Source: Planctomycetota bacterium (GTDB taxonomy: Bacteria; Planctomycetota; Phycisphaerae; Phycisphaerales; UBA1924). Taken from it: 62,955 bases of DNA. Every line of letters starts with the position of its first letter. Position 1 is the stretch's first letter. Where the stretch lies: the NCBI GenBank assembly GCA_022563015.1, contig JADFOF010000001.1, positions 1 through 62,955 of the forward strand. Direction: 5' to 3'. Positions 24,146-58,844 of this stretch are shown in pieces. The notes under the pieces are model-generated. The model saw only the letters and a list, made by a program, of their open reading frames with translations, searched no databases and was not told the origin of the DNA. Position numbers and translations under genes: made by a program.

Positions 24146-25461
24146 GCGCGCGAGCGAGTGGTTTCGCCACCATCATCGTCCTGTGGGTCGTCGCGGTGAC
24201 GACGGCGCTGCTGATGGGGCTGCAATCGACGACCTTTCGCCAGGCGGCAGCAGGGCGGGAAGTGATGGCACGCACCCGCGCCTATTGGGCGGCCCGGGGC
24301 GGGATCGAGGCGACCATCGCGCGGCTGGCTCACGACACGCTGAACCCGGACCCGAGCGATCCGCTCCGCGTCGTGTTTGACATGGAGGACGTCGCGGAGG
24401 GTACGTATCCGGGAGCGAGCTACGCGATATCGCACACCGAACGCGACGTGGAGCTGCTCGGGCCCGAGGACGCGCACGCGAAAATCCACATCGCGACGAT
24501 GACCGCCGACGCGCTGCTGCTCCTGCCCTACATGACCGAGGACACGGCCGACGCGATCGTCGACTGGATGGACGGCGACGACGAGGTGAGCAACTTCGGC
24601 GCCGAGTACAGCCAGTACCTCCAGCAGCCGTACCCGTACCTGCCGCGCAACGCTCCGATCCGATCGCTGCTCGAACTGGAGCTCGTGCTCGGGGTGGAGC
24701 CTCTATTCGTGCGCGGCGAAGACCTGAACCTCAACGGGCTAATGGACATCTGGGAGGACGACGGAAACGGACAGTTCGACCGTGAGTGGGGCGAGTTCGT
24801 GACGGCGTCGAGCGTGGGCGGCGGGTACGCGTCGTCCGGGCAACCCAGGCTCAACCTGGCCGAGGCTGACCCCGGTGAGGTCGCCCAGCGCACGGGTGTG
24901 TCCGCGCAGCAGGCGGACGTGATCGTCGGATGGGCGTCGGGAATCCTCGCGGGTCAGCCCCGGTCGATGACGGACTACATCTCCACCCCCCTGACTGCGA
25001 TGTTCAATCAGCTGAACCAGGGTGACGGCGGAAACCAGGGCGCGATCCGGCCGGAGAACCTGAATAGCGATCAGCTCGCGCTGCTGCTGGCCGAAGCGAC
25101 GATCGTGGACCTGCTCGATGACGGAACACCGTGGTTGGGCAAGGTCAACATCAACACCTGTTCTGACAAGGTGCTCGAGTATCTGCCGGGGATCGACATC
25201 GCGGTGATCGACGCGCTGATCGCGGCCCGGAACTCGCGGGGGAGCGCCGGATTTGCGTCATTGCCGGAGATCCTCGACGAGACCGTGCTGATCTCGCAGC
25301 AGCAGCTCGCGCAGCTGTACGAGGTGCTCGACGTTCGCTCCAACGTCTACATCTGCCGGTCCCGGGGCCGAGATACGGCCACGGGGATCGAGGTTGAAAT
25401 CATCGCGACACTCGATCGTTCCACTCTCCCGGTGACCATCAGGGAGGTTCGGATCCGATGA
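24142..25461 (+). CDS. gspK: GspK minor pseudopilin
   Basis: SGFATIIVLWVVAVTTALLMGL N-terminus and C-terminal VNINTCSDKVLEYLPGIDIAVIDALIAARN helix-hairpin-helix-like segment typical of GspK. Confidence 0.8.
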   Translation: MSARASGFATIIVLWVVAVTTALLMGLQSTTFRQAAAGREVMARTRAYWAARGGIEATIARLAHDTLNPDPSDPLRVVFDMEDVAEGTYPGASYAISHTERDVELLGPEDAHAKIHIATMTADALLLLPYMTEDTADAIVDWMDGDDEVSNFGAEYSQYLQQPYPYLPRNAPIRSLLELELVLGVEPLFVRGEDLNLNGLMDIWEDDGNGQFDREWGEFVTASSVGGGYASSGQPRLNLAEADPGEVAQRTGVSAQQADVIVGWASGILAGQPRSMTDYISTPLTAMFNQLNQGDGGNQGAIRPENLNSDQLALLLAEATIVDLLDDGTPWLGKVNINTCSDKVLEYLPGIDIAVIDALIAARNSRGSAGFASLPEILDETVLISQQQLAQLYEVLDVRSNVYICRSRGRDTATGIEVEIIATLDRSTLPVTIREVRIR

Positions 25462-27197: not shown

Positions 27198-27790
27198 CGA
27201 AGTTGTGGCTACGACTGACTGAGTTGTCATTCGTGATGAAGTTCGCGATCGGTGCGGGCGTATTCCTGGTGGTCTACTTCGTCGCAATCGAGCCGGGGCT
27301 CACCGCATACGGACGCTTCAACATGAGAGCGACGGACGCCTCGGCGTGGCTGAAGCAGTACGCCACGCGGACCGCCCAGCAGACGGGGCTCGTGTCGGAG
27401 GTTGCGGTCGGTGAGAGCCGATACGGGGTGGTCGAGCCTCCGGCGTCGTTCGAGCAGCGAACCGCCGACATGGACGAGAGCATCCGAGAGATCCTCGAGC
27501 AGTTCAACGTCGAAAACCAGAGCATCACCTCTCGATACAAGGTGCTGCCGCCGGACACACTGAGTGGCTCGGTCGATTCCGGCCAGCGGGTCGAGCGGGT
27601 ATTCAAGGAGATCGGGTTCGACTCGACGCCGGAGCAGTTTGCTTCGGTGCTCGCGGCGTTGGAGCAGAGCCCCGTCATTGTCGGTGTGTCGCGGCTGGAC
27701 ATTCGTCGCGACCGCTCCGGACAGCGGCGCGTGCTGGTCTCTATGACCGTCGACGGATGGGTCCTCGCCCGAAAGGAGGGCCCGCGATGA
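27194..27790 (+). CDS. GspM/PilO-like assembly protein
   Basis: GTG start in a GTGA overlap. N-terminal TM FAIGAGVFLVVYFVAI. Size and position match GspM. Confidence 0.6.
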   Translation: MTKLWLRLTELSFVMKFAIGAGVFLVVYFVAIEPGLTAYGRFNMRATDASAWLKQYATRTAQQTGLVSEVAVGESRYGVVEPPASFEQRTADMDESIREILEQFNVENQSITSRYKVLPPDTLSGSVDSGQRVERVFKEIGFDSTPEQFASVLAALEQSPVIVGVSRLDIRRDRSGQRRVLVSMTVDGWVLARKEGPR

Positions 27791-28467
27791 CCACCAGCCG
27801 CGGCGATGTGGTGCGCGCGGGCCGACTGCTCGGTGTCGGCGGCGGGATTGCCGCGCTGATGCTGGCGCTGTACGTGCTCGTCGCGTCGGTATCGGGTGTG
27901 TCGCTGATCTCGGCGCTGCTCGTGCCGACCACGAGCCCAAGCGAAAGTCCTGCGGATTCCCTTCCGGCAGGGCAGGATCGGCTCTCGGATTACGTCGCGC
28001 AGATCGATGGGCGCACCATGTTCTTCACACCCGCGCCACCTCCGCCACGGCCGGTGTTTGCAGCCAACAACCAGGACGGACCCGACGTGGATCCACCCCC
28101 GGCACGTTACGGCGGGCCGAGCGTGATCGGGCTCCTCAACGACATGGTCTGGTTCTCCGACAAGCGGCAGGCGATCGTCGGGGGCGAGGCGGTGGGGGAT
28201 CTGCGCGTGATTTCGACCGACGCCCCGTGGAGCGTGACGGTGAAATGGCAGGGCGTGGAGTTCGACGTGCCATTCCTGGCGCGGGACAGCGTCGTGCTGG
28301 CCGGCGACGAGGAGTCCGCGCGGGCCGAGGCTCTCGGTCCGATCGAACTGGCCTTGAGCGAACCCGGTCGTGCCGAGTCGGCCGCGTCAGAGCCCACGCC
28401 GGGCAACGAACCAGAAGTTGACCAGACAATTCCGCCAGCGGGCGTTCAGCCGGGAGACCAACGATGA
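27787..28467 (+). CDS. GspC/PilP-like protein
   Basis: ATG at 27787 (ATGA overlap). TM GGGIAALMLALYVLVASV, a proline-rich linker, then SVIGLLNDMVWF...GDLRVIS HR-like domain directly upstream of the secretin. Confidence 0.55.
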   Translation: MTTSRGDVVRAGRLLGVGGGIAALMLALYVLVASVSGVSLISALLVPTTSPSESPADSLPAGQDRLSDYVAQIDGRTMFFTPAPPPPRPVFAANNQDGPDVDPPPARYGGPSVIGLLNDMVWFSDKRQAIVGGEAVGDLRVISTDAPWSVTVKWQGVEFDVPFLARDSVVLAGDEESARAEALGPIELALSEPGRAESAASEPTPGNEPEVDQTIPPAGVQPGDQR

Positions 28468-30845
28468 TGAACTTCAACCGCTTCTCATGGACGATTCGCG
28501 CCGCGTGTGGCACCCTTGCGGCGCTGACGCTCGTGTGCGGGCAGGCGTTGGCGTTTCAGGACGAGGGAGACGCCCAACCTGACCGACGTGACGAGCGGGG
28601 TCGTCGCATTCTGAGCGGCCCGGACACGGTGCTCGCGTTCAAGAACGTCTCCATCGATCAACTCGTGCCGTTCATCGTCGAGGCGACGGGCAAGGTCGTC
28701 CTGCCCCAGAGCGACGTCCTGACGCGGCGGATCACGATCCTGAATGATCGGCTGATTCCGCGCCAGCGTGCGCTCGATCTGATATTCCTCGCGCTGCAGC
28801 AGGAGGGGATCGCGGTGGTCGAGACCGCCGAAACGATCACGCTTCGCGACATCACGGAGATCGATCGCCAGGACGTGCCGGTTCTGGGGTCCGAAGAGTC
28901 CGTGCTCGATCGTCGCGACTACGGCACGATCGTCGAGAAGGTCTTCGGGCTGAGCAACTCGACCGCGGAGACGATGGGCGACCTGCTCGAGGACATGATT
29001 CCGGACTACGCGAAGCTGACGGTCGACGAGGAGTCCAACCAGGTGGTGGTGATGGGGAACATCGCGCTGCTGCAGCGGATGGAGCGGCTGATCGCTTCGC
29101 TCGACCGAGATCGCTCGGACGCGGTGCAGACGGAGACGTTCCGCCTCCGCTACGCCGACGCCGAGCAGGTCAAGGAGAACATTGAAGAGCTCTACGCGGC
29201 TGACACGGGCCAGGGCGCCGGCAATCAGGCGCGAGGCAACCAGCGGACTCAGCAACAAGTTCGGTTCAACTTCGGCGGCCGGGGCGGGGCCGGCACCAGC
29301 GCCGGCGATTCGAACTCGTCAAATCCATCGGAGAATCTGCGCGTCAGCGCCAATGTTCAGCAGAACTCGGTGACGGTTGTCGCCGAGCCGAGCATACTGG
29401 CGCAGATCCGCGGCCTGATCGAGAACGATTGGGACGTGCCGATCGTGAAGGCAGAGGTCGTTCCCAAGGTGTATACCCTGCTGTATACGGATCCGATCAA
29501 GGTCGCCGATGCGCTTTCAGAGCTCTTCGACGACGAAGATGTGAACCGGCTGGCGGGGCAGTTCTCGTTCCAGCCGCTGGCGGATTCAAACCAGCTGGTC
29601 GTGCTGACGAAGTCGCCGGACAACATCGGCGTGGTTGACGAGATGATCGCCCAGATCGACAGGCCGCAGACCGTGGGGTTGCCGGCGATCGTCGAACTCA
29701 AGCACTCGTCCGCGGAGGAGGTGGCCGAGCAGCTCAACGCCCTGCTGGCGCAGGACGGCACGATCGCCCAGCTGCCCCGGTCCGAGACGGGGCTCGCCGC
29801 CGGGTCGTCCAACATCAGTCCGTTCTCGAGCACCGCGGACGACACTCAGACGCAGGACAACCAGCCGCAGGTGGACGTGATCCAGTTCTGGTGGCAGCGA
29901 TCGAGGCCGCCCACCGACGAGCGCGGGCCATCGAACCTTATCTCTCAGATCCGCATCGTCCCTGTGTGGCGTCAGAACGCGCTCATGGTCCTGGCCCCGC
30001 CGGAATACAAAGAGTCCATCGTCAAGCTGATCCAGGATCTCGACAAGCCGGGGCGGCAGGTGATGATTCGGGTCATCATCGCGCAGGTGTCAACGGACGA
30101 CTCGACGGCGCTGGGGTTCCGTTGGTCCAGCGATGCAATCAATCTGCAGACGGGCGACAACTCGATCCGGTTCGGGATCGGTGCGAATGCGACGGAGAAC
30201 AACCTCCTCGGCAATGCGTTCGATACGTCGGTGCTGAACGTGAACACCGACCTGAACGTCGTACTCCAGGCCCTGGCCCAGAACACGAGCGTGAACATCC
30301 TCACCTCGCCGGAGATCTTCACGAGCGACAACCAGGAGGCTTCTTTCTTCGACGGGCAGGACATCGCGTTTCCGGTGTCCGTCCAGACGTTTGATACAGG
30401 GGCGGTGACCGTGAACACGGACTACCGCGCGGTGGGAATCCAGCTTCGCGCCCGCCCTCGGATCACGCCCAGCGGCGACGTGGATCTGCGCGTCAATATC
30501 CAGGTCTCCAGCATCGCGCCCGGTCAGATCGTCAACGGCAGCATCGTGGTCGACCGGAGCGAGGCCACCACTCAGCTCATCGTCAAGAACGGCCAGACCA
30601 TCGTGCTCTCGGGAATCAAGCAGAGCGAGGACACGGAGATCATCCGCAAGGTGCCGATCCTGGGCGACATCCCGATTCTCGACTGGTTCTTCAAGTCCAA
30701 GGAAACGATTGCGGTCGAGTCCGAGCTGCTCTTCTTCATCACGCCGTACGTCGTCGAGAACACCGGCGAGCTGGAAAAGCTCAACCAGCCCTACATAGAC
30801 ACGCTGGACAGGCAGCGGGCCGAGAAGGAGAACGAGGGCCAGTGA
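28464..30845 (+). CDS. gspD: type II secretion secretin GspD
   Basis: Signal peptide, N0-N3-like repeats, C-terminal secretin core (ILTSPEIFTSDNQEA...VLSGIKQ...RKVPILGDIPILDWFFKSK). Confidence 0.92.
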   Translation: MMNFNRFSWTIRAACGTLAALTLVCGQALAFQDEGDAQPDRRDERGRRILSGPDTVLAFKNVSIDQLVPFIVEATGKVVLPQSDVLTRRITILNDRLIPRQRALDLIFLALQQEGIAVVETAETITLRDITEIDRQDVPVLGSEESVLDRRDYGTIVEKVFGLSNSTAETMGDLLEDMIPDYAKLTVDEESNQVVVMGNIALLQRMERLIASLDRDRSDAVQTETFRLRYADAEQVKENIEELYAADTGQGAGNQARGNQRTQQQVRFNFGGRGGAGTSAGDSNSSNPSENLRVSANVQQNSVTVVAEPSILAQIRGLIENDWDVPIVKAEVVPKVYTLLYTDPIKVADALSELFDDEDVNRLAGQFSFQPLADSNQLVVLTKSPDNIGVVDEMIAQIDRPQTVGLPAIVELKHSSAEEVAEQLNALLAQDGTIAQLPRSETGLAAGSSNISPFSSTADDTQTQDNQPQVDVIQFWWQRSRPPTDERGPSNLISQIRIVPVWRQNALMVLAPPEYKESIVKLIQDLDKPGRQVMIRVIIAQVSTDDSTALGFRWSSDAINLQTGDNSIRFGIGANATENNLLGNAFDTSVLNVNTDLNVVLQALAQNTSVNILTSPEIFTSDNQEASFFDGQDIAFPVSVQTFDTGAVTVNTDYRAVGIQLRARPRITPSGDVDLRVNIQVSSIAPGQIVNGSIVVDRSEATTQLIVKNGQTIVLSGIKQSEDTEIIRKVPILGDIPILDWFFKSKETIAVESELLFFITPYVVENTGELEKLNQPYIDTLDRQRAEKENEGQ

Positions 30846-32116
30846 GGAGAGCCCGCGTGGTGATGCGTCTGTGCTCTGTTCTCGCAGCGGTCGCGATGTT
30901 GGCCGGGTGCCAGGTCGAGGTGTCTCGCCGGCCGATCGGGCGAGGGGCTCGATCGGCCGAGCCTCGTGTCGAGATGCCGACCGGACCCATCGCAACCCTG
31001 CGTGCGAACGTCACGACGAGCGCTCGGATTCGGCTGGAGATCACGCCTGTCGGGGTGGTTCGCTACGACGGGCAGGTGCTGCCGATGCTCTCGCCGAACG
31101 GTCGATTCCTGGCGGTGCAAGAGGGTGCCGCGCCGACCTGGCCGACGCTGCTGGCCGCCGACGGCGCCGTCCCGCCACTCCGCACGCGGATCGCCGTGTA
31201 CGAGATCACCGATCGCCGGCTGCATCGCGTCGAGTTCGCGTTGCAGCTTCCGACCGGGCTCTTGCTCGGGCGATCGGCCGGCGAGAACGGGTTTCTTGTC
31301 GAGTCGCCCAGGCCCGACGGCTCGCGGTGGATCGGGCTGGTCGATTGGGTCGCCGGCGGCGTCGAGTGGCTGGTCCGCGACCAGCACGTCAATGCCCATG
31401 CGGTCTTCACCCCCACGGGCCACCTCGTGTACGCCAGACGCTCCGTCGGTCAGCCCGCCGTTTCGCTCGTGATGCGGGATCGATTCGGCAATGTGGATGT
31501 GCAGTCGAGCGACGAGGCCTCGGCCATGTTTCCGTTGTGCACCGATGAGCCGGGCGTTGTCTATGTCTTCGCCCAAGAGGACGGCGAGTTGATCGTCCGG
31601 GCGATTCACATCGTCGAGAGCTCGATCAGACGCGACGCGTTCGTTCTCGGATCGATCGAGATGCAGCGACGGATCGCGTCCAACGCGCCGGCGACGCTGG
31701 CCTATCAGTGTCTCGCGGGGGTGGGGTACGGCCTGCCGGCCGGAGACCAGGACGCCTCATTGCTCGAGCTGCCCGTCGTGTTCTTCCATCCCCTCCTGAA
31801 GCGTCTGGTGGCGATGGATCGGCGAGACGGGAGCTTCGGCACATTCCCGGAACGATCCTTCGCCGCGGCCCGATCCCGGTTCCAGGACACGCCCGGGTAT
31901 TTCGTCGCGACGCCGAACGAGCTGTTTTTCTCGATGCTTCGGAGCGGCCCGTTCAGCGCTGAACCGGTGCGATCCGCACGGGCGCTCGACGACGCCTACA
32001 TCCCGCGCGCCAGCACGAACCCCGATCTGCCCCTGGTCGTGTTCGGCCCCAGCGATCGAGATCCGTACGAACTCGCGGTGCTGCGCGTGACGATTCCGCG
32101 CCCGGATCAGAACTGA
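30842..32116 (+). CDS. lipoprotein co-transcribed with the secretin (function unknown; pilotin or accessory candidate)
   Basis: GTG start in a GTGA overlap with gspD. Lipobox VAMLAGC. No recognisable motif. Repeat-like beta-rich sequence. Confidence 0.6.
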   Translation: MRRARVVMRLCSVLAAVAMLAGCQVEVSRRPIGRGARSAEPRVEMPTGPIATLRANVTTSARIRLEITPVGVVRYDGQVLPMLSPNGRFLAVQEGAAPTWPTLLAADGAVPPLRTRIAVYEITDRRLHRVEFALQLPTGLLLGRSAGENGFLVESPRPDGSRWIGLVDWVAGGVEWLVRDQHVNAHAVFTPTGHLVYARRSVGQPAVSLVMRDRFGNVDVQSSDEASAMFPLCTDEPGVVYVFAQEDGELIVRAIHIVESSIRRDAFVLGSIEMQRRIASNAPATLAYQCLAGVGYGLPAGDQDASLLELPVVFFHPLLKRLVAMDRRDGSFGTFPERSFAAARSRFQDTPGYFVATPNELFFSMLRSGPFSAEPVRSARALDDAYIPRASTNPDLPLVVFGPSDRDPYELAVLRVTIPRPDQN

Positions 32117-32177: not shown

Positions 32178-34214
32178 CTACCGACTGTGATGGTGCATCG
32201 CCAGGTCGATCCAGGCGTCGCTCTTGGCGCTCTCGGACCGAAGCACCGCGGCGCGGCGGCCGGACGACCACTGAGCCACGCCCCACAGAACTCTCGCTGC
32301 CAGGCGTCGAACCGTGCCGCGCGTCGAACGTGTGAGCGCGACGAGCAGTTTCAGACCGTGACGAGCCACCAGCTGGTCTTCGAGCGATATGTAGGTCTCC
32401 GCGAGCCCGGGATCGCCCTGCCGACCCGCGCGGCCGTAGAGCTGACGATCGACGCGGGACTCGGCGTGCCGTTCCGTGGCGATCACCACCAGGCCGCCCA
32501 GCTTGCGCGTTGTGTCGTCGATGATGATATCGGTGCCGCGACCGGCCATGTTCGTCGCGACCGTCACGGCGCCGGAGCGACCCGCCTGGGCCACGATCTG
32601 AGCCTCTTCCGCCTCGCGTGTCGCGTTCAGGATTCGGCACGGCACGCCGCGATCACTGAGCATCTGCCCGAGTCGTTCCGATGAGGCGACGCTGCGCGTG
32701 CCGATGAGCACCGCCCGCCCCTCGTGGTGCAGCGACTCGGTGCGCTTTGCGACGGCTATGAACTTCTCCGCCTCGGTCGTGAACACGCGGTCCCCGGCCT
32801 TGGCGCGGATCACGGGCCGATGCGTCGGCACGCGCACGACCCGCAGGCGGTAGTACTTCCAGAGCTCATCGGAGACCTCCCACGCGGTCCCGGTCATGCC
32901 GCTCAGCTTGCGGTAACGCTGGAAAAACCGCTGGTAGCTCACGCGGGCGCTCGTGACGCGCTCGTCGCTGAGATCCAGTTCTTCCTTGGCCTCGACGGCC
33001 TGGTGCACACCGAGCTGCCACTGTCGTCCGTCGAGCAGCCGTCCGGTCGAGCGGTCCACGATGATGAGCTTGCCCTCCTGGACGATGTAGTCGTCGTCCC
33101 TGACGTACAGCTCCCGCGCGGAGATCGCGCGCACGAGCAACTCCTCGCTGCGCCTTGGTCCCGCCCAGAACGGGGGCAACTCCCCGGCCAGCCCGGCCAG
33201 CTTGTTCCGCCCGGCGTCGGTCAGGCGCACCGTGTGCTGGCGTTTATCGACGGTGTAGTCGTGCTGCGTCTCGAATCGCCCGGCGAGTTCAGCCGCGATG
33301 CGAAAGTGCATGGTCCGCTGCCGGGTGGCGTCGTCGGGCAGTTCCTGGGCAATGATGGCCGGCGTCACCGCCTCGTCGATGAGCACGCTGTCCGCCTCGT
33401 CCACGATCGCCGCGTTCAACCCGCGCTGCACGACCATGTCGCCCCAACGGTGGCCTGGCGTGACCTGACTCTCCCGCGTGAGTTCATCCAGGAGCAACGA
33501 GGCCAGCCGCGGGTTCAGCGGCGACACGAGGCGGTCTCTCAGAAAGTCGAAGATCACCTGCTTGTCGGCGGCGTAGGTGACACACCTTGCGTACGCCTGC
33601 TTCCGCTCCAGCTGCGGCATCCCGTCCTGAAGCACCCCGACGGTTATGCCCAGCCGCCGAAATACCGGGCCTGTGATCCGGGCGTCGCGGTCGGCGAGAT
33701 AATCGTTCACGGTGATGACGTGCAGGCCCCGTCCGATCCAGCCCTCGATGGCGGCGGGCAGCACCGCCGTGATCGTCTTCCCTTCGCCGGTGGCCATCTC
33801 CGCGCAGCAGCCGCGCGACATCGCCAACGCCCCCATGATCTGCTCGACGTGCAAAGTGAGCCCGACATGGCGTCGAATGGCTTCGCAGGCCACGGCGTAG
33901 GCCTCGCCCAGCGATTCGCCGGTCGTTCCCACGCACAGCACGGACGCCCTGCACTCATCCACAACCGCGTCGAACGCCGCCTCGCTCAGCTTCGAGTGCG
34001 CCGCCGCTCGGCCGGCGATTCGTTCCGCCTCGCGACGGTCTCTCGCTGGGGCGCGCCGACGAAGCGCACGCGCCGCCAGTCGCTCCGCGATGGCGTCGGC
34101 ACCCCGCGTCGGCGTCGTGCGGACAAATGGCCGGGCCAGCGATGCCCAGAGACGATCATCGACACGCTGATCGTCCGCGCCCCGTACCGAGATGCTGCCC
34201 GACAGCAGGCTCAT
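32178..34214 (-). CDS. SecA-like ATPase, C-terminally truncated (NBD1, PPXD, NBD2 and a short helix only)
   Basis: EMATGEGKT (Walker A), VDEADSVLIDEAVTPAII (DEAD), LSGMTGTA, VLIGTRSV, ATNMAGRGTDI and GGLVVIATERHAESRVDRQLYGRAGRQGDPG all match SecA motor motifs. Ends about 70 aa after NBD2. ATGA overlap with the upstream gene. Confidence 0.85.
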   Translation of the reverse strand: MSLLSGSISVRGADDQRVDDRLWASLARPFVRTTPTRGADAIAERLAARALRRRAPARDRREAERIAGRAAAHSKLSEAAFDAVVDECRASVLCVGTTGESLGEAYAVACEAIRRHVGLTLHVEQIMGALAMSRGCCAEMATGEGKTITAVLPAAIEGWIGRGLHVITVNDYLADRDARITGPVFRRLGITVGVLQDGMPQLERKQAYARCVTYAADKQVIFDFLRDRLVSPLNPRLASLLLDELTRESQVTPGHRWGDMVVQRGLNAAIVDEADSVLIDEAVTPAIIAQELPDDATRQRTMHFRIAAELAGRFETQHDYTVDKRQHTVRLTDAGRNKLAGLAGELPPFWAGPRRSEELLVRAISARELYVRDDDYIVQEGKLIIVDRSTGRLLDGRQWQLGVHQAVEAKEELDLSDERVTSARVSYQRFFQRYRKLSGMTGTAWEVSDELWKYYRLRVVRVPTHRPVIRAKAGDRVFTTEAEKFIAVAKRTESLHHEGRAVLIGTRSVASSERLGQMLSDRGVPCRILNATREAEEAQIVAQAGRSGAVTVATNMAGRGTDIIIDDTTRKLGGLVVIATERHAESRVDRQLYGRAGRQGDPGLAETYISLEDQLVARHGLKLLVALTRSTRGTVRRLAARVLWGVAQWSSGRRAAVLRSESAKSDAWIDLAMHHHSR

Positions 34215-36421
34215 CGGTGCAGCCTCGCGTCCAGATACTGGGTGCCTCTGCGGAAGAGCTGCGCGGCGAGCGGCTCGCGGGCCAGGCCGAACCGCACCCG
34301 CGCACGCACACCCGGCTGGGCGCTCGAAACAGGATTGTCAGTGCTTTCGTCGGCCTCGATCTCGATGAGCCAGTGCGTCTCCATCGCCACGAGTCGCCCG
34401 GACTGCGACGGCTCGACAGCGATCGAACCCGCGGTCAGCCTCGCGTACGCTGGGTTCTGCAGGTCGCGCGTGCCCATCGTCGCGCGGCTGGTGATCGTTC
34501 CGGGAACGCTCTGTCCGGCATGACCCCGCACGCGCACCGTGACGCTTGGGCTAGGCTCCGCGCCCGCGAGGATGTGCGCATAGCTGCGGTCAGGCACGAG
34601 CGCCCGCACCACCAGTTCCGGGCTGGATACGAATCCGATGAGCGCGCCGTGCGGCAGGTATCGGCCGACGATGTTGTCGAAGTCGACCGCCGTGCCGTCC
34701 GACGGCGCGACAACGCCCGATATCGGCGCCCGCAGCACCAGCGCGTCCAGGCGCTGTGCCACGCGATCGTATTGGAGCTGGAGCTGCTGGCGCGCCGCCA
34801 GGGCGACCTCGAAGTCCAGCGCCGGGCCGGACATCGCCTCATCGACCTGACGCTGCGCCCGATCCAGCTGCGCGCCAAGGCGAGCGGCCTCGGCCTGGAG
34901 CTCGGGGCTCTGAAGCGTGACCACTGGATCTCCCTTGGCGACGTGCTGGCCCGCTCGGGCCACTATGCTCCGCACAAACCCGGACTCGCCCGCCCGGAGC
35001 GGCGCGGCGTGCTTAGCCTCGACGATCGCGGGCGCATACTCGGCCGACGACACCGGCACCAGGCCCAGCCCGACCAGCGGTATCCCCACCGCGGTCATCG
35101 ACACCAGGCACGCCCGCCCGCGCCGTCCGAGCAGTTTCGGCGACGACGCGAGATACCCGATCACCTTCAGCACCGGCCACACCAGCCACATCGCGGCCAT
35201 CATGCCGCCCAGCAACAACCCGAAGGCGGCGTAACGATCCATGATCAGCAGCACGATCGAGAGGCCGATGAAGATCCGGTACGGCGTGGATAAGAGGCCG
35301 AACACGGTGAGCACCGTCGCCTCGGTCCGATCGCGCACGCGCGGCGGCTGGCTGCTCTTGAGCCCGAACATGTAACGCTCGATGAGAAATCGGAGGAGAT
35401 CGCGGCTTCGTTGCGACAGGTTCGGCGAGCCGACCAGATCCGACAGAATGTAGTACCCGTCGTAGCGAAGCAGCGGGTTGAGATTGAAGAGCAACGTCGA
35501 CACGCCCGAGATGATCATCACCTGGTACGCGATTCCAACGAGCGTGGGCGACACAGCCGGGTCGGCCAGCGCCCAGTAGATGCCGGCGATCGCAGCCACG
35601 AGCGACTCAACGATCACCCCGGCTGCGGACACGAGCACGCGGGGCCGGATCCGCGCGAAGCGCCACGCCGTGGTGGCGTCGCAGTAGGGCAGCGGCAATA
35701 CACCGGCGATCATGATGACTCCGATCTCCGTGCTGCGCCCGCCCATCGCCTTGCACGCCGCGGCGTGTCCCATCTCGTGGATCGCTCGAAGCACGAGGAA
35801 CACGGCGCCCATCGCCGCCATGCCGCGCGGATCGAGCGCGAGCAGGCCCGCAAACTCGTCGCCGAAACGACCCGCGCTGCGGATCAGCAGATACGCCGCG
35901 ACAGACATCGTCACCAACCAGACCAGGGCGCCCCACCGCGAGAAGATCAGCTCGACAACCCGCCTGTGCCGATCGAGGAACGGCTCCGGGTTATACAGCG
36001 GGATGTTCCAGAAGACCCACATCCCGGTGCGTCGCTTGACGCGCGTCTCTCTCGCTTTCAGCTTGCGTTCCAGCACCATATCCGCGGCGAGTTCGTTGTC
36101 GCCCAGGAGCAATCCGAACAGTTGAAGTTGAGAGAGCAGCTGGACACACTCGCGCTGGGTCGGCGCTTCGTCGCCGAGTTGTGCATTGCACGCGTTCCAC
36201 GCGTCGTCGACGGTCCGACGCCCATCGAGCAGGCCGACAAAGAAGTACGCCGACTCGCTCAGCCGGTAATACTGCCCGCTGGCCGGATCCTCGACGATGT
36301 ACGCGATCGTCGGGCCGTACCGCTGGCGAATGATATTGGCGTGCGGCGTCAGCCTCGGGCGGGACTCCGCCACGCGGTACCAGATGTCGCTGAACGTGGC
36401 TCCGACTTCTTCCCAGGGCAC
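34211..36421 (-). CDS. fusion protein: PqqD-like N-domain, M50 (site-2-protease-like) membrane metalloprotease, and HlyD-type periplasmic adaptor
   Basis: HEMGH encoded at 35765-35779, NLNPLLRYDGYY third-ligand motif, N-terminal YYRLSESAYFFVGLLDGRRTVDDAW (PqqD/RRE-like). C-terminal lipoyl, coiled-coil and beta-barrel MFP-like region. Confidence 0.8.
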   Translation of the reverse strand: MPWEEVGATFSDIWYRVAESRPRLTPHANIIRQRYGPTIAYIVEDPASGQYYRLSESAYFFVGLLDGRRTVDDAWNACNAQLGDEAPTQRECVQLLSQLQLFGLLLGDNELAADMVLERKLKARETRVKRRTGMWVFWNIPLYNPEPFLDRHRRVVELIFSRWGALVWLVTMSVAAYLLIRSAGRFGDEFAGLLALDPRGMAAMGAVFLVLRAIHEMGHAAACKAMGGRSTEIGVIMIAGVLPLPYCDATTAWRFARIRPRVLVSAAGVIVESLVAAIAGIYWALADPAVSPTLVGIAYQVMIISGVSTLLFNLNPLLRYDGYYILSDLVGSPNLSQRSRDLLRFLIERYMFGLKSSQPPRVRDRTEATVLTVFGLLSTPYRIFIGLSIVLLIMDRYAAFGLLLGGMMAAMWLVWPVLKVIGYLASSPKLLGRRGRACLVSMTAVGIPLVGLGLVPVSSAEYAPAIVEAKHAAPLRAGESGFVRSIVARAGQHVAKGDPVVTLQSPELQAEAARLGAQLDRAQRQVDEAMSGPALDFEVALAARQQLQLQYDRVAQRLDALVLRAPISGVVAPSDGTAVDFDNIVGRYLPHGALIGFVSSPELVVRALVPDRSYAHILAGAEPSPSVTVRVRGHAGQSVPGTITSRATMGTRDLQNPAYARLTAGSIAVEPSQSGRLVAMETHWLIEIEADESTDNPVSSAQPGVRARVRFGLAREPLAAQLFRRGTQYLDARLHR

Positions 36422-36455: not shown

Positions 36456-38408
36456 TCACACCCAAAGCCACATGCGCAGCCTGTCGATGATCGGCCGAAA
36501 AATCGTGCTCAAAGGCGATCGACGCACCATCGATCCGTCCCGCTCGACGCCGAGCTTCACCGACGCGCTCATGCCCGGCGACAGAGCCACGCCCGCGGGA
36601 ATGGTCAGGATCTCGGCCTCGACCTTGTACACGTTGGCCCCTTCGACCGGCTCGGCGACCGGGCTGATGTGCGAGACGCGCACGCGGATCTTCGCACCCG
36701 GGCTCCCCTTGAGGACCATCGTGCCGGTCTGGCCGATCCGCACGTCCGTGATGTCCCGCTCATCGACATCAATGGCGGCGATGTTCTCGCTGCCGACGAT
36801 AATGAACAGCGGCGTCGTCGGCTCGACCCGCGCGCCCACCAGCGCTTCAAGATCGCCCTGCGCAACCGTTCCCGTGAACGGGGCCCGGATCAGGGCGTGC
36901 TCCAGCCGATACGTGACGATTCCCAGCCTCTGTTCGAGCGCCGCGATGTCATCAGACAGCGACTCGGCCTTGGCCTGCTGGCCGGCGCGCAGTGCGTCGT
37001 CGCGTTCGGTTCTGTACCGTTGCCGCTCCGCTTCCAGCCGGGCATGCTCATAGGTCAACTCCTGCGTATCAAGCGCGGCGAGCGGGTCGCCCTGTTCCAC
37101 CTCATCCCCGGGGCGCACATACACCTCAGCGAGGTGGCCCTCGAACGGGGGCACAATGGTGCGAGACAGAAGCGCCTTGATCTCAGCCGTCGCCGATATC
37201 TGCTGGGGAAGCCACGGGATCGAGCCCACCACGAGCGCGATGGCTGCGGCCATTCCGAGCAGTTTCTTGCCCGTGTGCCGCGGTCCAACGATCGCTCGGC
37301 ACAGATCCATCGTGCGGTCGCGCGTCACTGCCAGCACGCCGCGATCCGCCATGCGCCGTGTCCACAGGGCCGGGCCGATGAACTCGGCAACCAGCCGCAG
37401 CAAGGTCGCGGATCCGGGCGGGAAGGGGTTGTCCGCCGGGCGCTCGAGCACGACTACCCCGACCAGATCGCCCTCGACGCGCAGCGGAAGACTCAGTATG
37501 CTCGACGGACCGAACTGCGCGCTCAGCTTCTCATGCGCCCGCGTCACGCGGCGATCGGCCGGGTTCAGTTCGCTTTCAGGCGGCGGCGGGAAGATCACCT
37601 CGATGTCCTGATCGGCGCACTCGTCCATGGCGTTCTCGATCCCCCCGACCGCGACGCCGCGACGATCGAGGTGGTCCACGCCGCTGAGCGCCGTCAGGCG
37701 GATCTGTTCGCCGCGGATCAATCCAATCGAGACGCGCGAGCACCCGAACCGCCGCTGAAGCTCGTGGCACATGAGCGAGCCCATCACCTCGGCGTTGCTT
37801 CCTTGCTGCGAGGCGTCGAGCAGCTCGAGGGTTTCGCGCAGCCGGATCCTCTGCTCCGTCTCGCTCATCGCGCGCTGGCGCCACAGGAAGGATTCGAGGC
37901 GCGCGGTGGTTAGTTCGAGTCGGCTCAGCGCCTCTTGCGGCGACACCGTGCTCTCGTTGGGTTGAATGAGGATGAACGCGCCCTCGGTCCGTCCTTCCGC
38001 CACGATCGGGCATGCGAGCGCGCGGTGCGTCGGTTTCGCGTCGTACATCGCCGATTCGGTCAGGCGGATCGGATGCACGTCGCCGCCCTCGGCTCCCGCC
38101 GCCACATCGCGCCCGATGCGTTCGATGAGCGACCGGATTCTCCCGTTGGGAGCGAGCGCCGCGTGCAGTGGCTGCGCCGCCGGGTCGTCCATCACAAAGA
38201 TGGCCGCGATGCCCCCTTGACGGGTCTCGGTGCCGAGCAGCACGACCACGCCCCCGATCGCCCCGACGAGACCGCTCTGGTATTCGAGCAGGGACTGGAG
38301 GAAGACCCGCAGGTCGGCCATCGGGTCCGAGGGCGCGGCCCGGCCAGCGGCTAATTCACCGGCCGGGAACCTCGCTTCGGTCGCTTCGCTCGGCTTGGCG
38401 GTGCTCAT
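36456..38408 (-). CDS. tandem GAF domains, TM, and HlyD-type membrane-fusion protein
   Basis: Two cytoplasmic GAF-like regions, TM LLGMAAAIALVVGSIPWL, then an HlyD-like lipoyl/coiled-coil/barrel region (GDPLAALDT...IRAPFTGTV). Confidence 0.75.
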   Translation of the reverse strand: MSTAKPSEATEARFPAGELAAGRAAPSDPMADLRVFLQSLLEYQSGLVGAIGGVVVLLGTETRQGGIAAIFVMDDPAAQPLHAALAPNGRIRSLIERIGRDVAAGAEGGDVHPIRLTESAMYDAKPTHRALACPIVAEGRTEGAFILIQPNESTVSPQEALSRLELTTARLESFLWRQRAMSETEQRIRLRETLELLDASQQGSNAEVMGSLMCHELQRRFGCSRVSIGLIRGEQIRLTALSGVDHLDRRGVAVGGIENAMDECADQDIEVIFPPPPESELNPADRRVTRAHEKLSAQFGPSSILSLPLRVEGDLVGVVVLERPADNPFPPGSATLLRLVAEFIGPALWTRRMADRGVLAVTRDRTMDLCRAIVGPRHTGKKLLGMAAAIALVVGSIPWLPQQISATAEIKALLSRTIVPPFEGHLAEVYVRPGDEVEQGDPLAALDTQELTYEHARLEAERQRYRTERDDALRAGQQAKAESLSDDIAALEQRLGIVTYRLEHALIRAPFTGTVAQGDLEALVGARVEPTTPLFIIVGSENIAAIDVDERDITDVRIGQTGTMVLKGSPGAKIRVRVSHISPVAEPVEGANVYKVEAEILTIPAGVALSPGMSASVKLGVERDGSMVRRSPLSTIFRPIIDRLRMWLWV

Positions 38409-38469: not shown

Positions 38470-38811
38470 TCAGTCGGCCAGCTTCGGCCCGTCACTCTCC
38501 TCGGCGGGCTGACTCGGGCCGGGCAGGCGGATCTCACCGTTGCGCTCCTCATATTGGCGGACCACCTGCCCCAGCGTGATCGCCAGTCGCTTGGCCCCCC
38601 CCCAGTTCATGATGATGCGGCTGCCGACGTTGAACATCAGGGCGGCCTGATTGTCCGGCCCCTGCACCGGCAGGTTCATACCGAAGTCCATGACGACCTC
38701 GTCCGTCGTGGTTGACGTACGGATCGTGTTCGCATACGTCGAAACCATCTTCGATTCGTCGATGCGGAGCTGGATCTGCTGGGTCTTCGGCTGGTCCTGG
38801 TTCTCGGCCAT
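38470..38811 (-). CDS. DUF3467-family small protein
   Basis: 113 aa. YANTIRTSTTTDEVVMDFG core resembles the DUF3467 signature as I recall it. AGGGGA Shine-Dalgarno upstream. First gene of the operon. Confidence 0.65.
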   Translation of the reverse strand: MAENQDQPKTQQIQLRIDESKMVSTYANTIRTSTTTDEVVMDFGMNLPVQGPDNQAALMFNVGSRIIMNWGGAKRLAITLGQVVRQYEERNGEIRLPGPSQPAEESDGPKLAD

Positions 38812-38939
38812 GGTGGCGTCCCCTGTTGGCTTGGTCGGTCCCGTGCAGACCGATGCGGTTGATCTCTATGCGTGAGGCAGTGTGCCCAAGCCGGGATCGC
38901 GCCCGGCCCGGCGGAAGCACAGCTTAGCCACGCCCCATG

Positions 38940-38984
38940 ACGGATCCACACCAATGCACACGGATCCACTTCGGCACCGGATCC
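38940..38984. promoter_or_regulatory. direct repeats ACGGATCCAC x2 (20-bp phase) plus a third CGGATCC, upstream of the DUF3467 operon
   Basis: ACGGATCCAC at 38940-38949 and 38960-38969, CGGATCC at 38978-38984. Located 130-175 nt upstream of the start at 38811. Confidence 0.35.
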
Positions 38985-39155
38985 CCGCTCCGGCGGACAC
39001 GGCACGTCCTTCGACGCCGGCCCTTGCTCCTGCCGGGGATGGCGAGGCGACAGGAGGGCCCACGGGAGCCCCGCTCGCACGTTCCATACGCTTCTCGTTC
39101 GGCCTCGGTTCCGGGTCGCAAAGCCTGCCCGTCGCCGATCTCGCGTGTGGCGGCG

Positions 39156-39965
39156 CTACCGGGCGGGCACCACGCGCTCAGTCGGCGCCATGCCCGGCGG
39201 GGGCAGACGCAGGTACCGCGTCAGCACCCGGACGCCGATGTAGAACGGGATCGTGTCAACCAGCGCCACGATCAGCTTGAACACGTATCCCGTCGCGACG
39301 AGCGCGAGCACCAACAAGAGTGTCTTGTCGCCGCTGGCCAGATCGGCCGCGAACGTGATGAAGATCACCGCGACCGTGTCCACGAACTGGCTGACCAGCG
39401 TGGAGCCGTTGTTCCGCAGCCACAGATGCCTGCCACCCGTCAGGTTCTTCCAGAAGTGAAAGAGCTGGACATCGATGAGCTGCGCGGCCATGTAGGCGAT
39501 CATGGAGGCGAGGACGGCTTTCATCGCCAGATCCTTGACCTGGAAGAACGTCTCGCCGTCGTTGGGACTGAACCCCGGATCGAAGCCCGGCCAAGCCCCT
39601 CCGAGCCACAGAATGAATACAACCCAGACGTTGAGCACCAGTCCGATGAACACGACGAAATTCGCTCGCCTTCTGCCGAACAGTTCCGAAATGAAGTCCG
39701 TGCAGAGGAAGGTGACGGGGTACGGCAGCACGCCCACCGCGATCGCCAGCGGGTACTTCCACTCGCTCGAACCCTCGATGAAGAACGCCAGGTTCAGGAA
39801 CCGGGTGATGCCCAGGATGTTGAGCATGGTCAGCGAGCCGAGGAACAGCCCCGCGAACAGCACAAACACTCGCTCGCGTCGGTCGTGCAGCTGACGCGGC
39901 GTCAACACCGGCAGGTCGGTGTATCGGTGCTGGTCTGTCGGCAGTGGGGCGTGGTCGGACGACAT
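39156..39965 (-). CDS. yhhQ: queuosine-precursor transporter (YhhQ/DUF165 family)
   Basis: Polytopic membrane protein with YPVTFLCTDFISELFGRRRAN, the conserved YhhQ-family motif. Confidence 0.8.
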   Translation of the reverse strand: MSSDHAPLPTDQHRYTDLPVLTPRQLHDRRERVFVLFAGLFLGSLTMLNILGITRFLNLAFFIEGSSEWKYPLAIAVGVLPYPVTFLCTDFISELFGRRRANFVVFIGLVLNVWVVFILWLGGAWPGFDPGFSPNDGETFFQVKDLAMKAVLASMIAYMAAQLIDVQLFHFWKNLTGGRHLWLRNNGSTLVSQFVDTVAVIFITFAADLASGDKTLLLVLALVATGYVFKLIVALVDTIPFYIGVRVLTRYLRLPPPGMAPTERVVPAR

Positions 39966-40086
39966 GAGTGCCTGGGACTCCTCACCGCCGGCTGGCGTGC
40001 CACCCGCGGATCCGCTGGGCGTGACGACACGAAGACCTCTTGGGCGGCAATATACCGTTCAATGGCCCGGGGTGGTAGCATCACGC

Positions 40087-40713
40087 ATGGACGTTCAGAC
40101 CCACCAGAGAGAATCCACCACGCCGCACGCCTCGGTCACGGACCAGGCGGGCCTCTCGTGCGAGCCCACCCGCACGACCCCGGCCGATCTGGCGCCTTCG
40201 ATCGAGGCGGTCCTGCTCACGCTCGAGCGGCCGATCTCCGCCCTCAGGCTCGCCGAGGCGCTCCATGTCGCCTCGGAGGAGGCTCCGGGCGCCACGTGTA
40301 TCGAGCGGGCGATCAAGGACCTCAACGAGCAGTACGCCCGGAATGGTCGCTCGTTTCGAATCGAGAAGGTGGCCGGGGGCTTCCGGGTGATGACGCTGGC
40401 CCAGTTCGCTCCCGTGATCGCAGCGTTTCACGCCTCGCGCACGCAGACGAAACTCTCCCGCGCCGCGATCGAGACCCTGTCCGTCGTCGCCTACAGGCAG
40501 CCGATCACCCGCGCGGACCTCGAGGCCATCAGGGGAGTCTCGTGCGGCGACGTGCTCCGCTCGCTGATCGAGCGGCGACTGGTGACCATCACCGGGCGGG
40601 CGGAGGAGCTGGGCCGACCGATGCTGTACGGCACGACGAAGTCATTCCTGGATCTGTTCGGGCTGGCATCCACGAAGGATCTGCCGCCCGTCGCGGAGTT
40701 TCTCGGCTCATGA
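40087..40713 (+). CDS. scpB: segregation and condensation protein B
   Basis: IEAVLLTLERPIS..., LSRAAIETLSVVAYRQPITRADLEAIRGV..., GRPMLYGTTKSFLDLFGL. ATG at 40087 chosen to avoid overlap with yhhQ. Confidence 0.85.
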   Translation: MDVQTHQRESTTPHASVTDQAGLSCEPTRTTPADLAPSIEAVLLTLERPISALRLAEALHVASEEAPGATCIERAIKDLNEQYARNGRSFRIEKVAGGFRVMTLAQFAPVIAAFHASRTQTKLSRAAIETLSVVAYRQPITRADLEAIRGVSCGDVLRSLIERRLVTITGRAEELGRPMLYGTTKSFLDLFGLASTKDLPPVAEFLGS

Positions 40714-40765
40714 CGCTCGCGCTGCACGATCGTCACGCCCGACGCCGGCGAGCGAGACGCCCGTC

Positions 40766-42031
40766 GTGGCCGAGATGACCAGCCCCGCATTGAGCAAGAG
40801 GGTCAAGCTGGCCCGGCAGTACCACTTCGTCTCCGGCGGCGTGCTGTATGTCGCGGTCACCACGCTGCTCATGCTCGGGGCGTTGAACAGCCAGAACAAC
40901 CTGTTGTTCGCGGCGTTGGGGATCGCGATGGCGGGGCTTGTCGTGTCCGGCGTGCTGAGTGGCGCGGCCCTGCTGGGCGTCCGGGTCGAGCGTGTGTCGG
41001 TGTCCGATGCGGGCGTGGGGCGGCCGATGACCATCCGATACACGGTCCGAAACGTGAATCGTGTTGTTCCCGCGTTCGCCCTGATCGTCGAGGAAGTGCA
41101 CACGAAGTCGTCGACCTGGAATCGCCATCTGTCGCAGCCGCGCGCGTTCGTCGCCCACGTCGGTCCCGGGCAGGAGGTCGAGTGTGAAGCCGTCGTCTGG
41201 CCGTCCACACGCGGGACGCCCGTGTTCGACGCGGTCCGCGTCTGGTCATCGTTCCCGTTCGGGATCGCCAAGAAATCCGTCACTCAGCGGACGCGCTGGG
41301 ACCGGACGGTGGTGCGGCCGCTCGTTCTTCCCATGCGCGACGCGCTGCTCCAGCGGCCGAGTGGTTCGACCGAGGCGGGCTTGCGTTCGTCGCGCAGGCC
41401 GGGCAGCGGCGACGAGTTCTTCGGCTTGCGCGAGTTCGTCCCGGGCGACCAGCTTCGGCACATCGCGTGGCGGGCCACGGCGCGGACGGGAAAGGTGCTC
41501 GTCACCCAGTCCGCCTCGCCGGTGCCGGATCGATTATGGGTGATTCTCAGGCTCGACGCCTCCAGCGAGTTCCGCGCGTCCAACGAGAGGGCGATCGCGT
41601 TGGCAGCCAGCATCGCAAGTCGGGCCGGACGCGACGCCACGATGGTCGGCCTGGAAGCACCGCTGGTCGGGCTGTCCATCCCACCCGGCGCCGGTTGCCG
41701 CGCGGTGGATCGACTCCTGGACGCACTCGGTCGGCTTAGCCCGTCGGCGACGGTGGGGGGGAGCGGCTCTGTCGTATCCACGGCGGTTGGACCGCGCGAC
41801 AACGCGATCGTCGTGCACGCGGGAGAGGTCGATTCCGCGTTCGGCCCGCGACACGCCCGGCACATCAGCTCCGACGAGATCGAGCAGTGGGTTTCGGACA
41901 AAGACACGATCCAGCTGCTCGAGCAGCTCGCCGGCGGGCAACCGGCGGCCACTCGTCCCGTCGTGCTCGCCCGCCGCTTCGAAGCGTGGGCGGCTGCGCT
42001 TCTTACGGGGAACCAGGAGCGCGTCGCGTGA
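40766..42031 (+). CDS. DUF58-domain protein (vWA-like, MoxR-system-associated family)
   Basis: Two N-terminal TM segments and GSGDEFFGLREFVPGDQLRHIAWRATAR, the DUF58 signature. Confidence 0.8.
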   Translation: MAEMTSPALSKRVKLARQYHFVSGGVLYVAVTTLLMLGALNSQNNLLFAALGIAMAGLVVSGVLSGAALLGVRVERVSVSDAGVGRPMTIRYTVRNVNRVVPAFALIVEEVHTKSSTWNRHLSQPRAFVAHVGPGQEVECEAVVWPSTRGTPVFDAVRVWSSFPFGIAKKSVTQRTRWDRTVVRPLVLPMRDALLQRPSGSTEAGLRSSRRPGSGDEFFGLREFVPGDQLRHIAWRATARTGKVLVTQSASPVPDRLWVILRLDASSEFRASNERAIALAASIASRAGRDATMVGLEAPLVGLSIPPGAGCRAVDRLLDALGRLSPSATVGGSGSVVSTAVGPRDNAIVVHAGEVDSAFGPRHARHISSDEIEQWVSDKDTIQLLEQLAGGQPAATRPVVLARRFEAWAAALLTGNQERVA

Positions 42032-58715: not shown

Positions 58716-58844
58716 GCCGGATGGTAAGCTCATCATTCCATTGGCGTCATGGGTCGGATCGGAGCGGACGGAACTCTCGAACCGCTCGAAGAGGAAACGT
58801 TGCCCCGGCTGTGTCCGCACGCCGGGGCCGAATCGACCCACAGC

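Follow-up and report, generated by a model that had tools for sequence, protein, structure and literature searches.

A PqqD-like, site-2-protease-like and periplasmic adaptor fusion protein of Phycisphaerales as candidate core of an export system for LEPR-tagged proteins

What could a single polypeptide do that carries a peptide-recognition domain, a membrane protease and a periplasmic adaptor? The question is raised by an open reading frame (ORF) located at 34211-36421 on the minus strand of contig JADFOF010000001.1, from a Planctomycetota bacterium of the Phycisphaerales (assembly GCA_022563015.1), of which we have analyzed positions 1 to 62,955 (the window in what follows). The ORF has 736 open codons and codes for a protein of 736 amino acids (aa) with three parts: a PqqD-like domain of the RRE type (RiPP recognition element, RiPPs being peptides made by the ribosome and modified after translation), a seven-helix core of the M50 or site-2-protease family, and a membrane-fusion domain like those of MexA and AcrA. 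Four tightly packed genes follow each other head to tail on this strand, coding for a DUF3467 protein, a second adaptor with GAF domains (the GAF-adaptor), the fusion protein and a SecA-like protein; we call this set the cassette. On balance we favour the view that the fusion protein is the inner-membrane core of a multi-component, envelope-spanning system for both the export and the processing of LEPR-tagged, often giant proteins. In the searchable literature, the coverage of which is incomplete, we found no description of the cassette, of a function for DUF3467 or of a pathway for LEPR-XLL proteins, and the gene set is apparently both conserved and undescribed.

The three domain assignments had been made in the original prediction, and all of them hold in Pfam, NCBIfam, an AlphaFold2 (AF2) model, Foldseek and scans of homologues. 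The PqqD/RRE-like domain (residues 29-104; 36110-36337, minus strand), predicted to be cytoplasmic, was recognized by Pfam PqqD (PF05402) on residues 42-104 (E 8e-7, 29.7 bits versus a cut-off of 23.4) and by its beta3-alpha3 fold in the model. At the other end, the HlyD/MexA-like membrane-fusion domain (residues 456-717; 34271-35056, minus strand), predicted to be periplasmic, is matched on residues 477-656 by Pfam HlyD_3 and HlyD_D23, the former with 28.6 bits versus a cut-off of 22.2, as well as by NCBIfam RND_mfp (TIGR01730, residues 457-650, E 5e-13) and by Foldseek. The profile searches proposed as a check have therefore returned both a PqqD-like and an HlyD-like match, each above its Pfam cut-off. 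When homologues were scanned one by one, PqqD was matched in all 20 and HlyD in 18.

The part between them (residues 162-454; 35060-35938, minus strand) appears as a membrane core of the M50 type with seven transmembrane (TM) helices and a re-entrant beta-hairpin, judging from AF2 secondary structure, hydropathy, the distribution of lysine and arginine (K/R), the NCBIfam model NF041824 and Pfam M50 matches in homologues. In the protein itself Pfam Peptidase_M50 (PF02163) reaches 20.2 bits on residues 206-279, under the cut-off of 27.2; the same model is matched by 20 of 20 homologues (best E 7e-7), and distant relatives pass the cut-off with 30.8-34.7 bits. The zinc-binding and catalytic motif HEMGH (residues 215-219) is found at 35765-35779 on the minus strand, exactly where it had been placed before. 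A second motif, NLNPLLRYDG (residues 313-322; 35456-35485, minus strand), at the start of NLNPLLRYDGYY (residues 313-324), corresponds to the NxxPxxxxDG of site-2 proteases, which provides the third zinc ligand, and the pair agrees with the HExxH plus NxxPxxxxDG signature of that family. Both motifs are invariant in an alignment of 77 homologues, specifically at H215, E216, H219, N313, N315, P316, D321 and G322.

The AF2 model, built on the 77-sequence alignment (pLDDT 87, pTM 0.68), begins with a conserved N-terminal helix followed by the RRE fold (residues 29-101, with strands at 29-35, 38-45 and 50-54 and helices at 56-64, 71-85 and 89-101) and a long helix (113-136). Two TM helices come next (162-181 and 198-225), the second with HExxH near its C-terminal end, and after them a beta-hairpin (232-248) that in the model we read as the membrane re-entrant loop familiar from site-2 proteases. 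Two more TM helices (258-285 and 292-313) lead to NxxPxxxxDG at the end of the second, then there are amphipathic helices (321-351) and three further TM helices (365-396, 398-426 and 434-454). The C-terminal domain is rich in beta structure and includes a short alpha-hairpin (506-529 and 534-559), and a helix ends the chain. With this model Foldseek retrieved from the PDB periplasmic adaptors only (TMexC, MexA, AcrA, MacA and ZneB, with 9j3d_D among the hits; E around 1e-14 over some 290 columns), and a sequence-profile search of the PDB gave adaptors only as well, including the two-adaptor TriAB fusion 6vej. No solved site-2 protease was matched by the M50 core in the PDB profile search, and the Foldseek matches were swamped by the adaptor domain. 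The isolated N-terminus had as best match among PDB sequences the lasso-peptide RRE TfuB1 (6jx3_B), a weak one (E 0.05). The site-2 proteases RseP, SpoIVFB and MjS2P share with the fusion protein the HExxH in a TM helix, the re-entrant beta-hairpin and the later NxxPxxxxDG; the fusion protein differs from them in having no PDZ or CBS domains and in carrying extra TM helices and a periplasmic adaptor domain.

By prediction, the N-terminus is inside and the C-terminus outside. The K/R-rich loops 226-257, 314-364 and 427-436, with 5, 9 and 5 such residues, fall on the side of the N-terminus, and from the seven TM helices of the model and this positive-inside distribution the RRE domain and the active site are expected in the cytoplasm and the adaptor domain in the periplasm. 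The domains would thus lie on compatible sides of the membrane, a point on which the original prediction could have failed. N-terminal to the RRE fold, residues 9-28 (36340-36397, minus strand) are strongly conserved as FSDxWYRV...PRLxPH, with F10, S11, D12, W14, Y15, R16, P22, R23 and H27 invariant or nearly so; this segment may be a partner-binding helix.

Full-length relatives were found in at least 594 species-level genomes and the fusion profile is matched by 5,350 protein clusters, so the fusion is not a product of chance or of assembly. There are more than 1,296 close homologues in the protein database, nearly all of about 735 aa. The 5,350 clusters (50% identity, E<=1e-30) came from a search of 1.84 billion cluster representatives, and the top 150 were nearly all full-length fusions. 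The scan of one genome per species located the loci, at least 594, mostly in Phycisphaerales and Tepidisphaerales, with further carriers in Planctomycetaceae, Verrucomicrobiota, Kiritimatiellae, Thermodesulfovibrionia, Desulfuromonadales, Sulfuritalea, Burkholderiales and Oxalobacteraceae. We have surveyed the gene order in 82 sampled loci by tblastn and clustering of ORFs. In 73-75 of them the genes for GAF-adaptor, fusion and SecA-like protein follow one another in this order, most of the others being cut by contig ends, and the arrangement spans Planctomycetota, Verrucomicrobiota, Kiritimatiellae, Nitrospirota, Desulfobacterota and Betaproteobacteria. A fifth gene, coding for a small HlyD-type adaptor of 280-330 aa, is present in 45 of the 82.

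What the protease works on is the next question. The best NCBIfam match of the fusion protein is NF041824 (daptide_HExxH; residues 41-414, E 4e-42), the model of the daptide peptidase MpaP, with which it shares the N-terminal RRE/PqqD domain and the M50 membrane protease. In daptide biosynthesis the RRE forms the N-terminal part of a fusion with a site-2 protease, which takes the leader off (daptide preprint). This match, together with a weak one to YydH/LiaK (NF058609, E 5e-6), which also has an M50-type HExxH membrane protease, would fit a leader peptidase and exporter of the YydH or MpaP kind acting on a small modified peptide encoded elsewhere, with the SecA-like and GAF-adaptor genes as unrelated neighbours. 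The scores are far under the curated cut-offs, 144.6 bits versus 300 for the daptide family and 26.4 versus 225 for YydH/LiaK, so that the N-terminal two thirds of the protein are related to the MpaP family without being a member of it. MpaP itself has no membrane-fusion domain and is encoded in RiPP clusters of actinobacteria, together with short precursors and modifying enzymes; around the cassette there is no cluster of aminotransferase, decarboxylase and methyltransferase and no short precursor. The earlier remark that automated pipelines tend to call such proteins YydH-like is correct as to the label, the Joint Genome Institute (JGI) annotation being 'putative peptide zinc metalloprotease protein', and is unsupported as to membership in that family. 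The accompanying statement that no radical-SAM enzyme, ABC (ATP-binding cassette) transporter or short precursor lies nearby is borne out: the operon neighbourhood has neither of the first two, no ABC transporter belongs to the conserved neighbourhood of the 82 loci, and among the short ORFs around the cassette in these loci only DUF3467 is conserved. No radical-SAM or other modifying enzyme was found there either, and the SecA-like and adaptor genes are coupled in translation and keep their synteny in different phyla. We consider a small-peptide function most improbable.

The partners encoded in the operon point in another direction. The gene that precedes the fusion gene (36456-38408, minus strand) codes for the GAF-adaptor, a protein of 650 aa with a GAF region (Pfam GAF, E 9e-12), one TM helix at about 379-397 and an HlyD-type membrane-fusion domain (HlyD_D23, E 2e-15; HlyD_3, E 2e-12). 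Its hydropathy suggests that the GAF region is cytoplasmic and the membrane-fusion domain periplasmic. It is located directly upstream of the fusion gene in 75 of the 82 loci.

The gene that follows (32178-34214, minus strand) starts with an ATG that overlaps the fusion gene's stop by 4 nt and codes for a truncated SecA paralogue of 678 aa. It shares with SecA and SecA2 the first nucleotide-binding domain (NBD1), the preprotein cross-linking domain, NBD2 and all the ATPase motifs, and Pfam recognizes SecA_DEAD (E 2e-81), SecA_PP_bind and P-loop_SecA. It remains under every NCBIfam cut-off for SecA or SecA2 (541 bits versus 862 in the best case). The alignment covers only residues 33-557 of the 841-residue SecA of B. 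subtilis, the helical wing domain, most of the scaffold, the two-helix finger and the C-terminal tail being absent. The two-helix finger is the element of SecA that enters SecY; the paralogue has the DEAD motor and the preprotein-binding domain intact and this SecY-inserting finger missing, and it is encoded with an M50-adaptor protein and not with SecY. We have compared 16 members from several phyla, in which Walker A (TGEGKT), the DExD box, GMTGT, TNMAGRGTDI and the DRQLxGRxxRQGDPG region are invariant and which all end about 50 aa past NBD2. The length is 645-708 aa for the family and 585-708 aa for the 120 closest relatives, and SecA_SW, the Pfam domain of wing and scaffold, occurs in none of them. 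The paralogue resembles the N68 motor fragment of E. coli SecA, as a counterpart found in nature. RefSeq/PGAP (Prokaryotic Genome Annotation Pipeline) names the paralogue 'prepilin peptidase' or 'DEAD/DEAH box helicase' (loci L089, 22222-24138, and L090, 23074-25098; P0296, P0302 and P0323), which is a systematic mis-annotation since Pfam shows SecA_DEAD, the preprotein cross-linking domain and P-loop_SecA.

The first gene of the operon (38470-38811, minus strand) codes for the DUF3467 protein (113 aa; Pfam PF11950, E 2e-17), a candidate export chaperone or adaptor. It was found upstream of the cassette in at least 29 of the 82 loci, in proteobacteria between the giant gene described below and the rest of the cassette, and it also occurs outside the cassette. 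Among close relatives no gene of the set is better conserved, the median identity being 72% versus 44-54% for the others, and therefore an accessory factor is more likely than a precursor or a fast-evolving peptide cargo. This speaks against the earlier idea of DUF3467 as candidate peptide. It gives no sign of being a SecB-like chaperone, because hhalign against E. coli SecB and a PDB profile search returned nothing. Its AF2 model is weak (pLDDT 62, beta-beta-beta-beta-alpha) and gave no match in Foldseek. In Phycisphaerales DUF3467 ends in a conserved tail, G-P-[KR]-L-[AS]-[DEN], which is missing in the Planctomycetaceae and proteobacterial copies and may be a docking motif.

The evidence on the cargo comes from relatives of the cassette on plasmids. 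We searched PLSDB by tblastn with a betaproteobacterial member of the family; 13 records, with 34-47% identity, span 99% or more of the query, and all of them come from cultured alphaproteobacteria, where they are plasmids or chromids. In each of the eight alphaproteobacterial records examined, the cassette is immediately preceded by the end of a very long ORF, annotated in five and unannotated in three. The annotated ones extend over 24-39 kb: a 'calcium-binding protein' of 24.4 kb in Alisedimentitalea scapharcae, an 'Ig-like domain-containing protein' of 31.5 kb in Mesorhizobium ciceri R30, a 'LamG-like...' protein of 26.5 kb in Methylosinus sp. C49, and a 'LEPR-XLL domain-containing protein' in Pseudosulfitobacter DSM 107133 (38.8 kb) and in Pontibrevibacter (31.8 kb). 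The unannotated ones, in Sinorhizobium chiapasense, Rhizobium sp. WSM1274 and Rhodobacteraceae M382, are open frames of 4,200-6,000 aa or more in the stretch read. The five giant genes of which the 5' end was read all start with a basic stretch followed by a motif of the LEPRxLLSA type (LEPRVLLNAD, LEPRLLLSAD, MEPRVLLSAD, LEPRLLLAAD and LEPRFLLSAD). Six N-termini were tested with NCBIfam NF012209 (LEPR-8K, 'LEPR-XLL domain') and five passed its cut-off, four of them from alphaproteobacterial giants and one from a Kiritimatiellae ORF that begins immediately behind the SecA-like gene (L072). In A. scapharcae (L095) the LEPRLLLAAD of the 24-kb gene lies upstream of the annotated start codon (start at about 183224), which is probably placed too far downstream.

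Methylosinus has the most complete arrangement, with giant gene, DUF3467, GAF-adaptor, fusion, SecA-like, small adaptor and TolC separated by gaps of 117 nt at most; its SecA-like gene is mis-named 'prepilin peptidase'. A long ORF that runs off the locus and has its stop just before DUF3467 was present in four betaproteobacterial loci derived from metagenomes. In Planctomycetota, N-termini with LE[PE]RxL[LF] flank the cassette in loci L052 (two genes), L056, L060 and L061. Because the gene set adjoins giant LEPRxLL genes in these relatives, export of LEPR-tagged proteins without an ABC transporter is probable. In Chlorobium chlorochromatii, proteins of 36,806 and 20,647 aa are reported to bear an N-terminal LEPRxLL domain of 24 aa and to be co-expressed with a recently acquired 'secA' (2026 preprint). 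The SapC family also flanks the giant LEPRxLL genes of this species (2026 preprint), and in two Rhodobacterales (L090, 22260-23081; L095, 1058-1855) a gene of this family is found within the cassette or next to it; SapC may be a further accessory component.

The original prediction had taken the combination of leader binding, protease and adaptor to imply coupled cleavage and export. The gene context strengthens the coupling and adds a source of energy, the SecA paralogue of the next gene, as well as the GAF-adaptor of the preceding one; the cargo has to be corrected, from a small RiPP-like peptide to what, in the relatives, is likely a very large LEPRxLL protein. In the mechanism that we propose, the N-terminal leader of the cargo (basic stretch plus LE[PE]RxL[LF]) would be captured in the cytoplasm, probably by the RRE domain and possibly with DUF3467 as chaperone or adaptor. 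The truncated SecA paralogue would then thread the unfolded chain from N- to C-terminus at the expense of ATP, and the leader would be removed by the M50 active site, on the membrane's cytoplasmic face. The adaptor domains of the fusion protein, of the GAF-adaptor and of the third, small adaptor where present would form a conduit to a TolC-type channel, and the GAF domains could gate the system on a cytoplasmic ligand. From the arrangement of the genes and domains we infer which component binds the leader, that the leader is cleaved, the direction of transport and the stoichiometry and, for the system of the window, that the cargo is encoded elsewhere. With an N-terminal tag and a processive motor of the SecA type, export could start while a chain of more than 10,000 residues is still being made, which by our own reasoning type I secretion, with its C-terminal signal, could not do.

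A second group of relatives bears on the role of the RRE and of the protease. More distant M50-adaptor fusions that have no RRE, with 24-31% identity over residues 83-632, come from IncF plasmids of E. coli and from plasmids of Azospirillum, where the only annotation is 'HlyD family efflux transporter periplasmic adaptor subunit'. This fusion matches 18 Escherichia and 8 Citrobacter plasmid records, and we have read the context in one E. coli plasmid (L100, NZ_CP081687.1, 44829-64580) and in one of Azospirillum argentinense (L101). They share with the cassette the M50 plus HlyD architecture, a giant cargo, TolC and two more adaptors, in the order giant Ig-like protein, TolC, small adaptor, adaptor (450 aa) and M50-adaptor. 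The giant protein has an N-terminus reading ...FALESRQLFDGAA or ...RFALESRQLFDGAA / LESRQLFDGAA. In contrast with the cassette, these two clusters have no RRE, SecA-like gene, ABC transporter, DUF3467 or GAF domain, and no recognizable ATPase was seen in them.

The same exporter of LEPR proteins could therefore be imagined with a fusion protein that is neither leader receptor nor leader peptidase, its M50-like domain being a membrane scaffold or channel, or clearing jammed substrate, and its RRE docking DUF3467 or the tail of the SecA-like protein. The RRE co-varies with the SecA-like gene and DUF3467 and not with the cargo motif, since the relatives devoid of RRE have LExRxLF cargo and TolC all the same, and the unusual conservation of DUF3467, with its conserved tail in Phycisphaerales, goes in the same direction. 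Against this stand HExxH and NxxPxxxxDG, whose invariance in 77 homologues argues for real proteolysis, and the fact that, among characterized proteins, the N-terminal two thirds have as closest relative a leader peptidase that depends on an RRE. We regard this version as unlikely.

Several observations weigh against the export system as we have drawn it. Its function is deduced from domain content and gene neighbourhood, and no M50 protease is known to form a protein-conducting channel. The relatives without RRE keep a similar LExRxLF cargo in spite of having no SecA-like gene and no DUF3467, so the RRE might dock one of these two proteins rather than the leader. N68, the fragment that the SecA-like protein resembles, is active as ATPase and is not known to translocate through SecYEG. 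Three loci with enough room for it (L030, L045 and L049) have no adjacent SecA-like gene, and their neighbours, considered as substitute ATPases, proved unrelated. The 63-kb window contains no TolC, small-adaptor, LEPR-like or giant ORF, and most of the loci in Phycisphaerales have no cargo gene next to the cassette.

A device for regulated intramembrane proteolysis or quality control of the envelope, with no export at all, was also considered. The site-2 protease would cut a membrane regulator or stalled proteins, with GAF as sensor, the SecA-like protein as unfoldase and the adaptors as tethers in the periplasm. GAF domains are sensory, site-2 proteases such as RseP and SpoIVFB classically work in signalling, and in locus L001 there are genes for extracytoplasmic function (ECF) sigma factors within about 8 kb. 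Nevertheless, no sigma/anti-sigma pair is conserved beside the cassette, and three adaptor-type proteins, TolC and adjacent genes for giant surface proteins speak of transport, which makes this explanation very unlikely.

If the preferred reading of a LEPR exporter is retained, the closest known systems are type I secretion and tripartite efflux (HlyB-HlyD-TolC, MacAB-TolC, TriABC). They share the adaptor fold, and TolC adjoins the genes in the relatives from Methylosinus, E. coli and Azospirillum; outside these relatives, giant repetitive cargo resembling adhesins is typical for type I secretion. The cassette differs in having no transporter of the ABC, RND (resistance-nodulation-division) or MFS (major facilitator superfamily) type, in a membrane subunit that is an M50-like and adaptor fusion with a SecA paralogue as ATPase, and in a cargo tag that is N-terminal instead of a C-terminal signal of the RTX (repeats-in-toxin) type. 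A leader peptidase coupled to an exporter is known from the C39-peptidase ABC exporters, the logic of which resembles that of the cassette. We see the cassette as a TolC/adaptor system with a different engine, and the chances that it deserves the status of a distinct secretion system are roughly balanced. The more specific proposal, that the operon represents an unrecognized class of Gram-negative secretion with a TolC/adaptor conduit, a subunit made of RRE, site-2 protease and adaptor, a truncated SecA motor free of SecYEG and cargo selected by LEPRxLL, is possible, and we hold it tentatively, at a little below an even chance.

The export of bacterial proteins of 5,000-36,000 residues is poorly understood, and the LEPRxLL tag is now linked to a gene set present in at least 594 species-level genomes of at least six phyla. 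If the proposal were true, proteins of very large size, up to more than 10,000 aa, would be threaded through the new class of system with the N-terminus ahead, possibly during translation, and an exit route would be available for the giant LEPRxLL proteins, including those of 'Chlorochromatium aggregatum'. TolC/adaptor systems would have a fourth inner-membrane engine beside ABC, RND and MFS, a SecA motor would be used independently of SecY and a site-2 protease would have a role in transport. The full cassette with adjacent cargo is carried by plasmids of Mesorhizobium ciceri, Ensifer adhaerens, Rhizobium spp., Methylosinus sp. C49 and Pseudosulfitobacter, and since these are cultured bacteria the question is directly testable. 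The annotation can also be corrected, because the fusion is now labelled 'PqqD family peptide modification chaperone', 'HlyD family...' or 'hypothetical'.

Some minor observations concern the surroundings of the cassette. A conserved ORF of about 126 aa with a zincin-like HEIGHHFG lies upstream of it in at least six sampled loci, all of the Tepidisphaerales type; in L027, L031, L044, L048 and L055 it is about 0.5 kb upstream of the small adaptor, and it may reflect local synteny or be an extra component. In the window, promoter, terminator and Rfam scans of 30-41 kb gave nothing informative. An operon like those of type II secretion or type IV pili (24142-32116, plus strand) converges on the SecA-like gene; it includes genes resembling GspK (24142-25461) and PilN (25458-27197), a secretin gene (28464-30845) and an unassigned ORF of 424 aa (30842-32116), all on the plus strand. 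A functional link with the cassette was discarded, since this adjacency is not kept in other loci. On the other side, an arginine-rich ORF of 613 aa without Pfam match (38937-40778, plus strand) is probably a spurious frame, and overlapping it on the minus strand (39156-39965) is a real-looking polytopic membrane protein of 269 aa. At 40766-44253 (plus strand) there is a DUF58 protein and after it a TgpA-type transglutaminase with DUF4129 (Pfam), which appear unrelated to the cassette. Finally, the ORFs of 677 and 733 aa at 56808-61046 (minus strand) were considered as a second copy of the cassette, their sizes being close to those of the SecA-like and fusion genes, and rejected; judged by eye, their translations look like a mechanosensitive-channel-like protein and a type III glutamine-synthetase-like protein.

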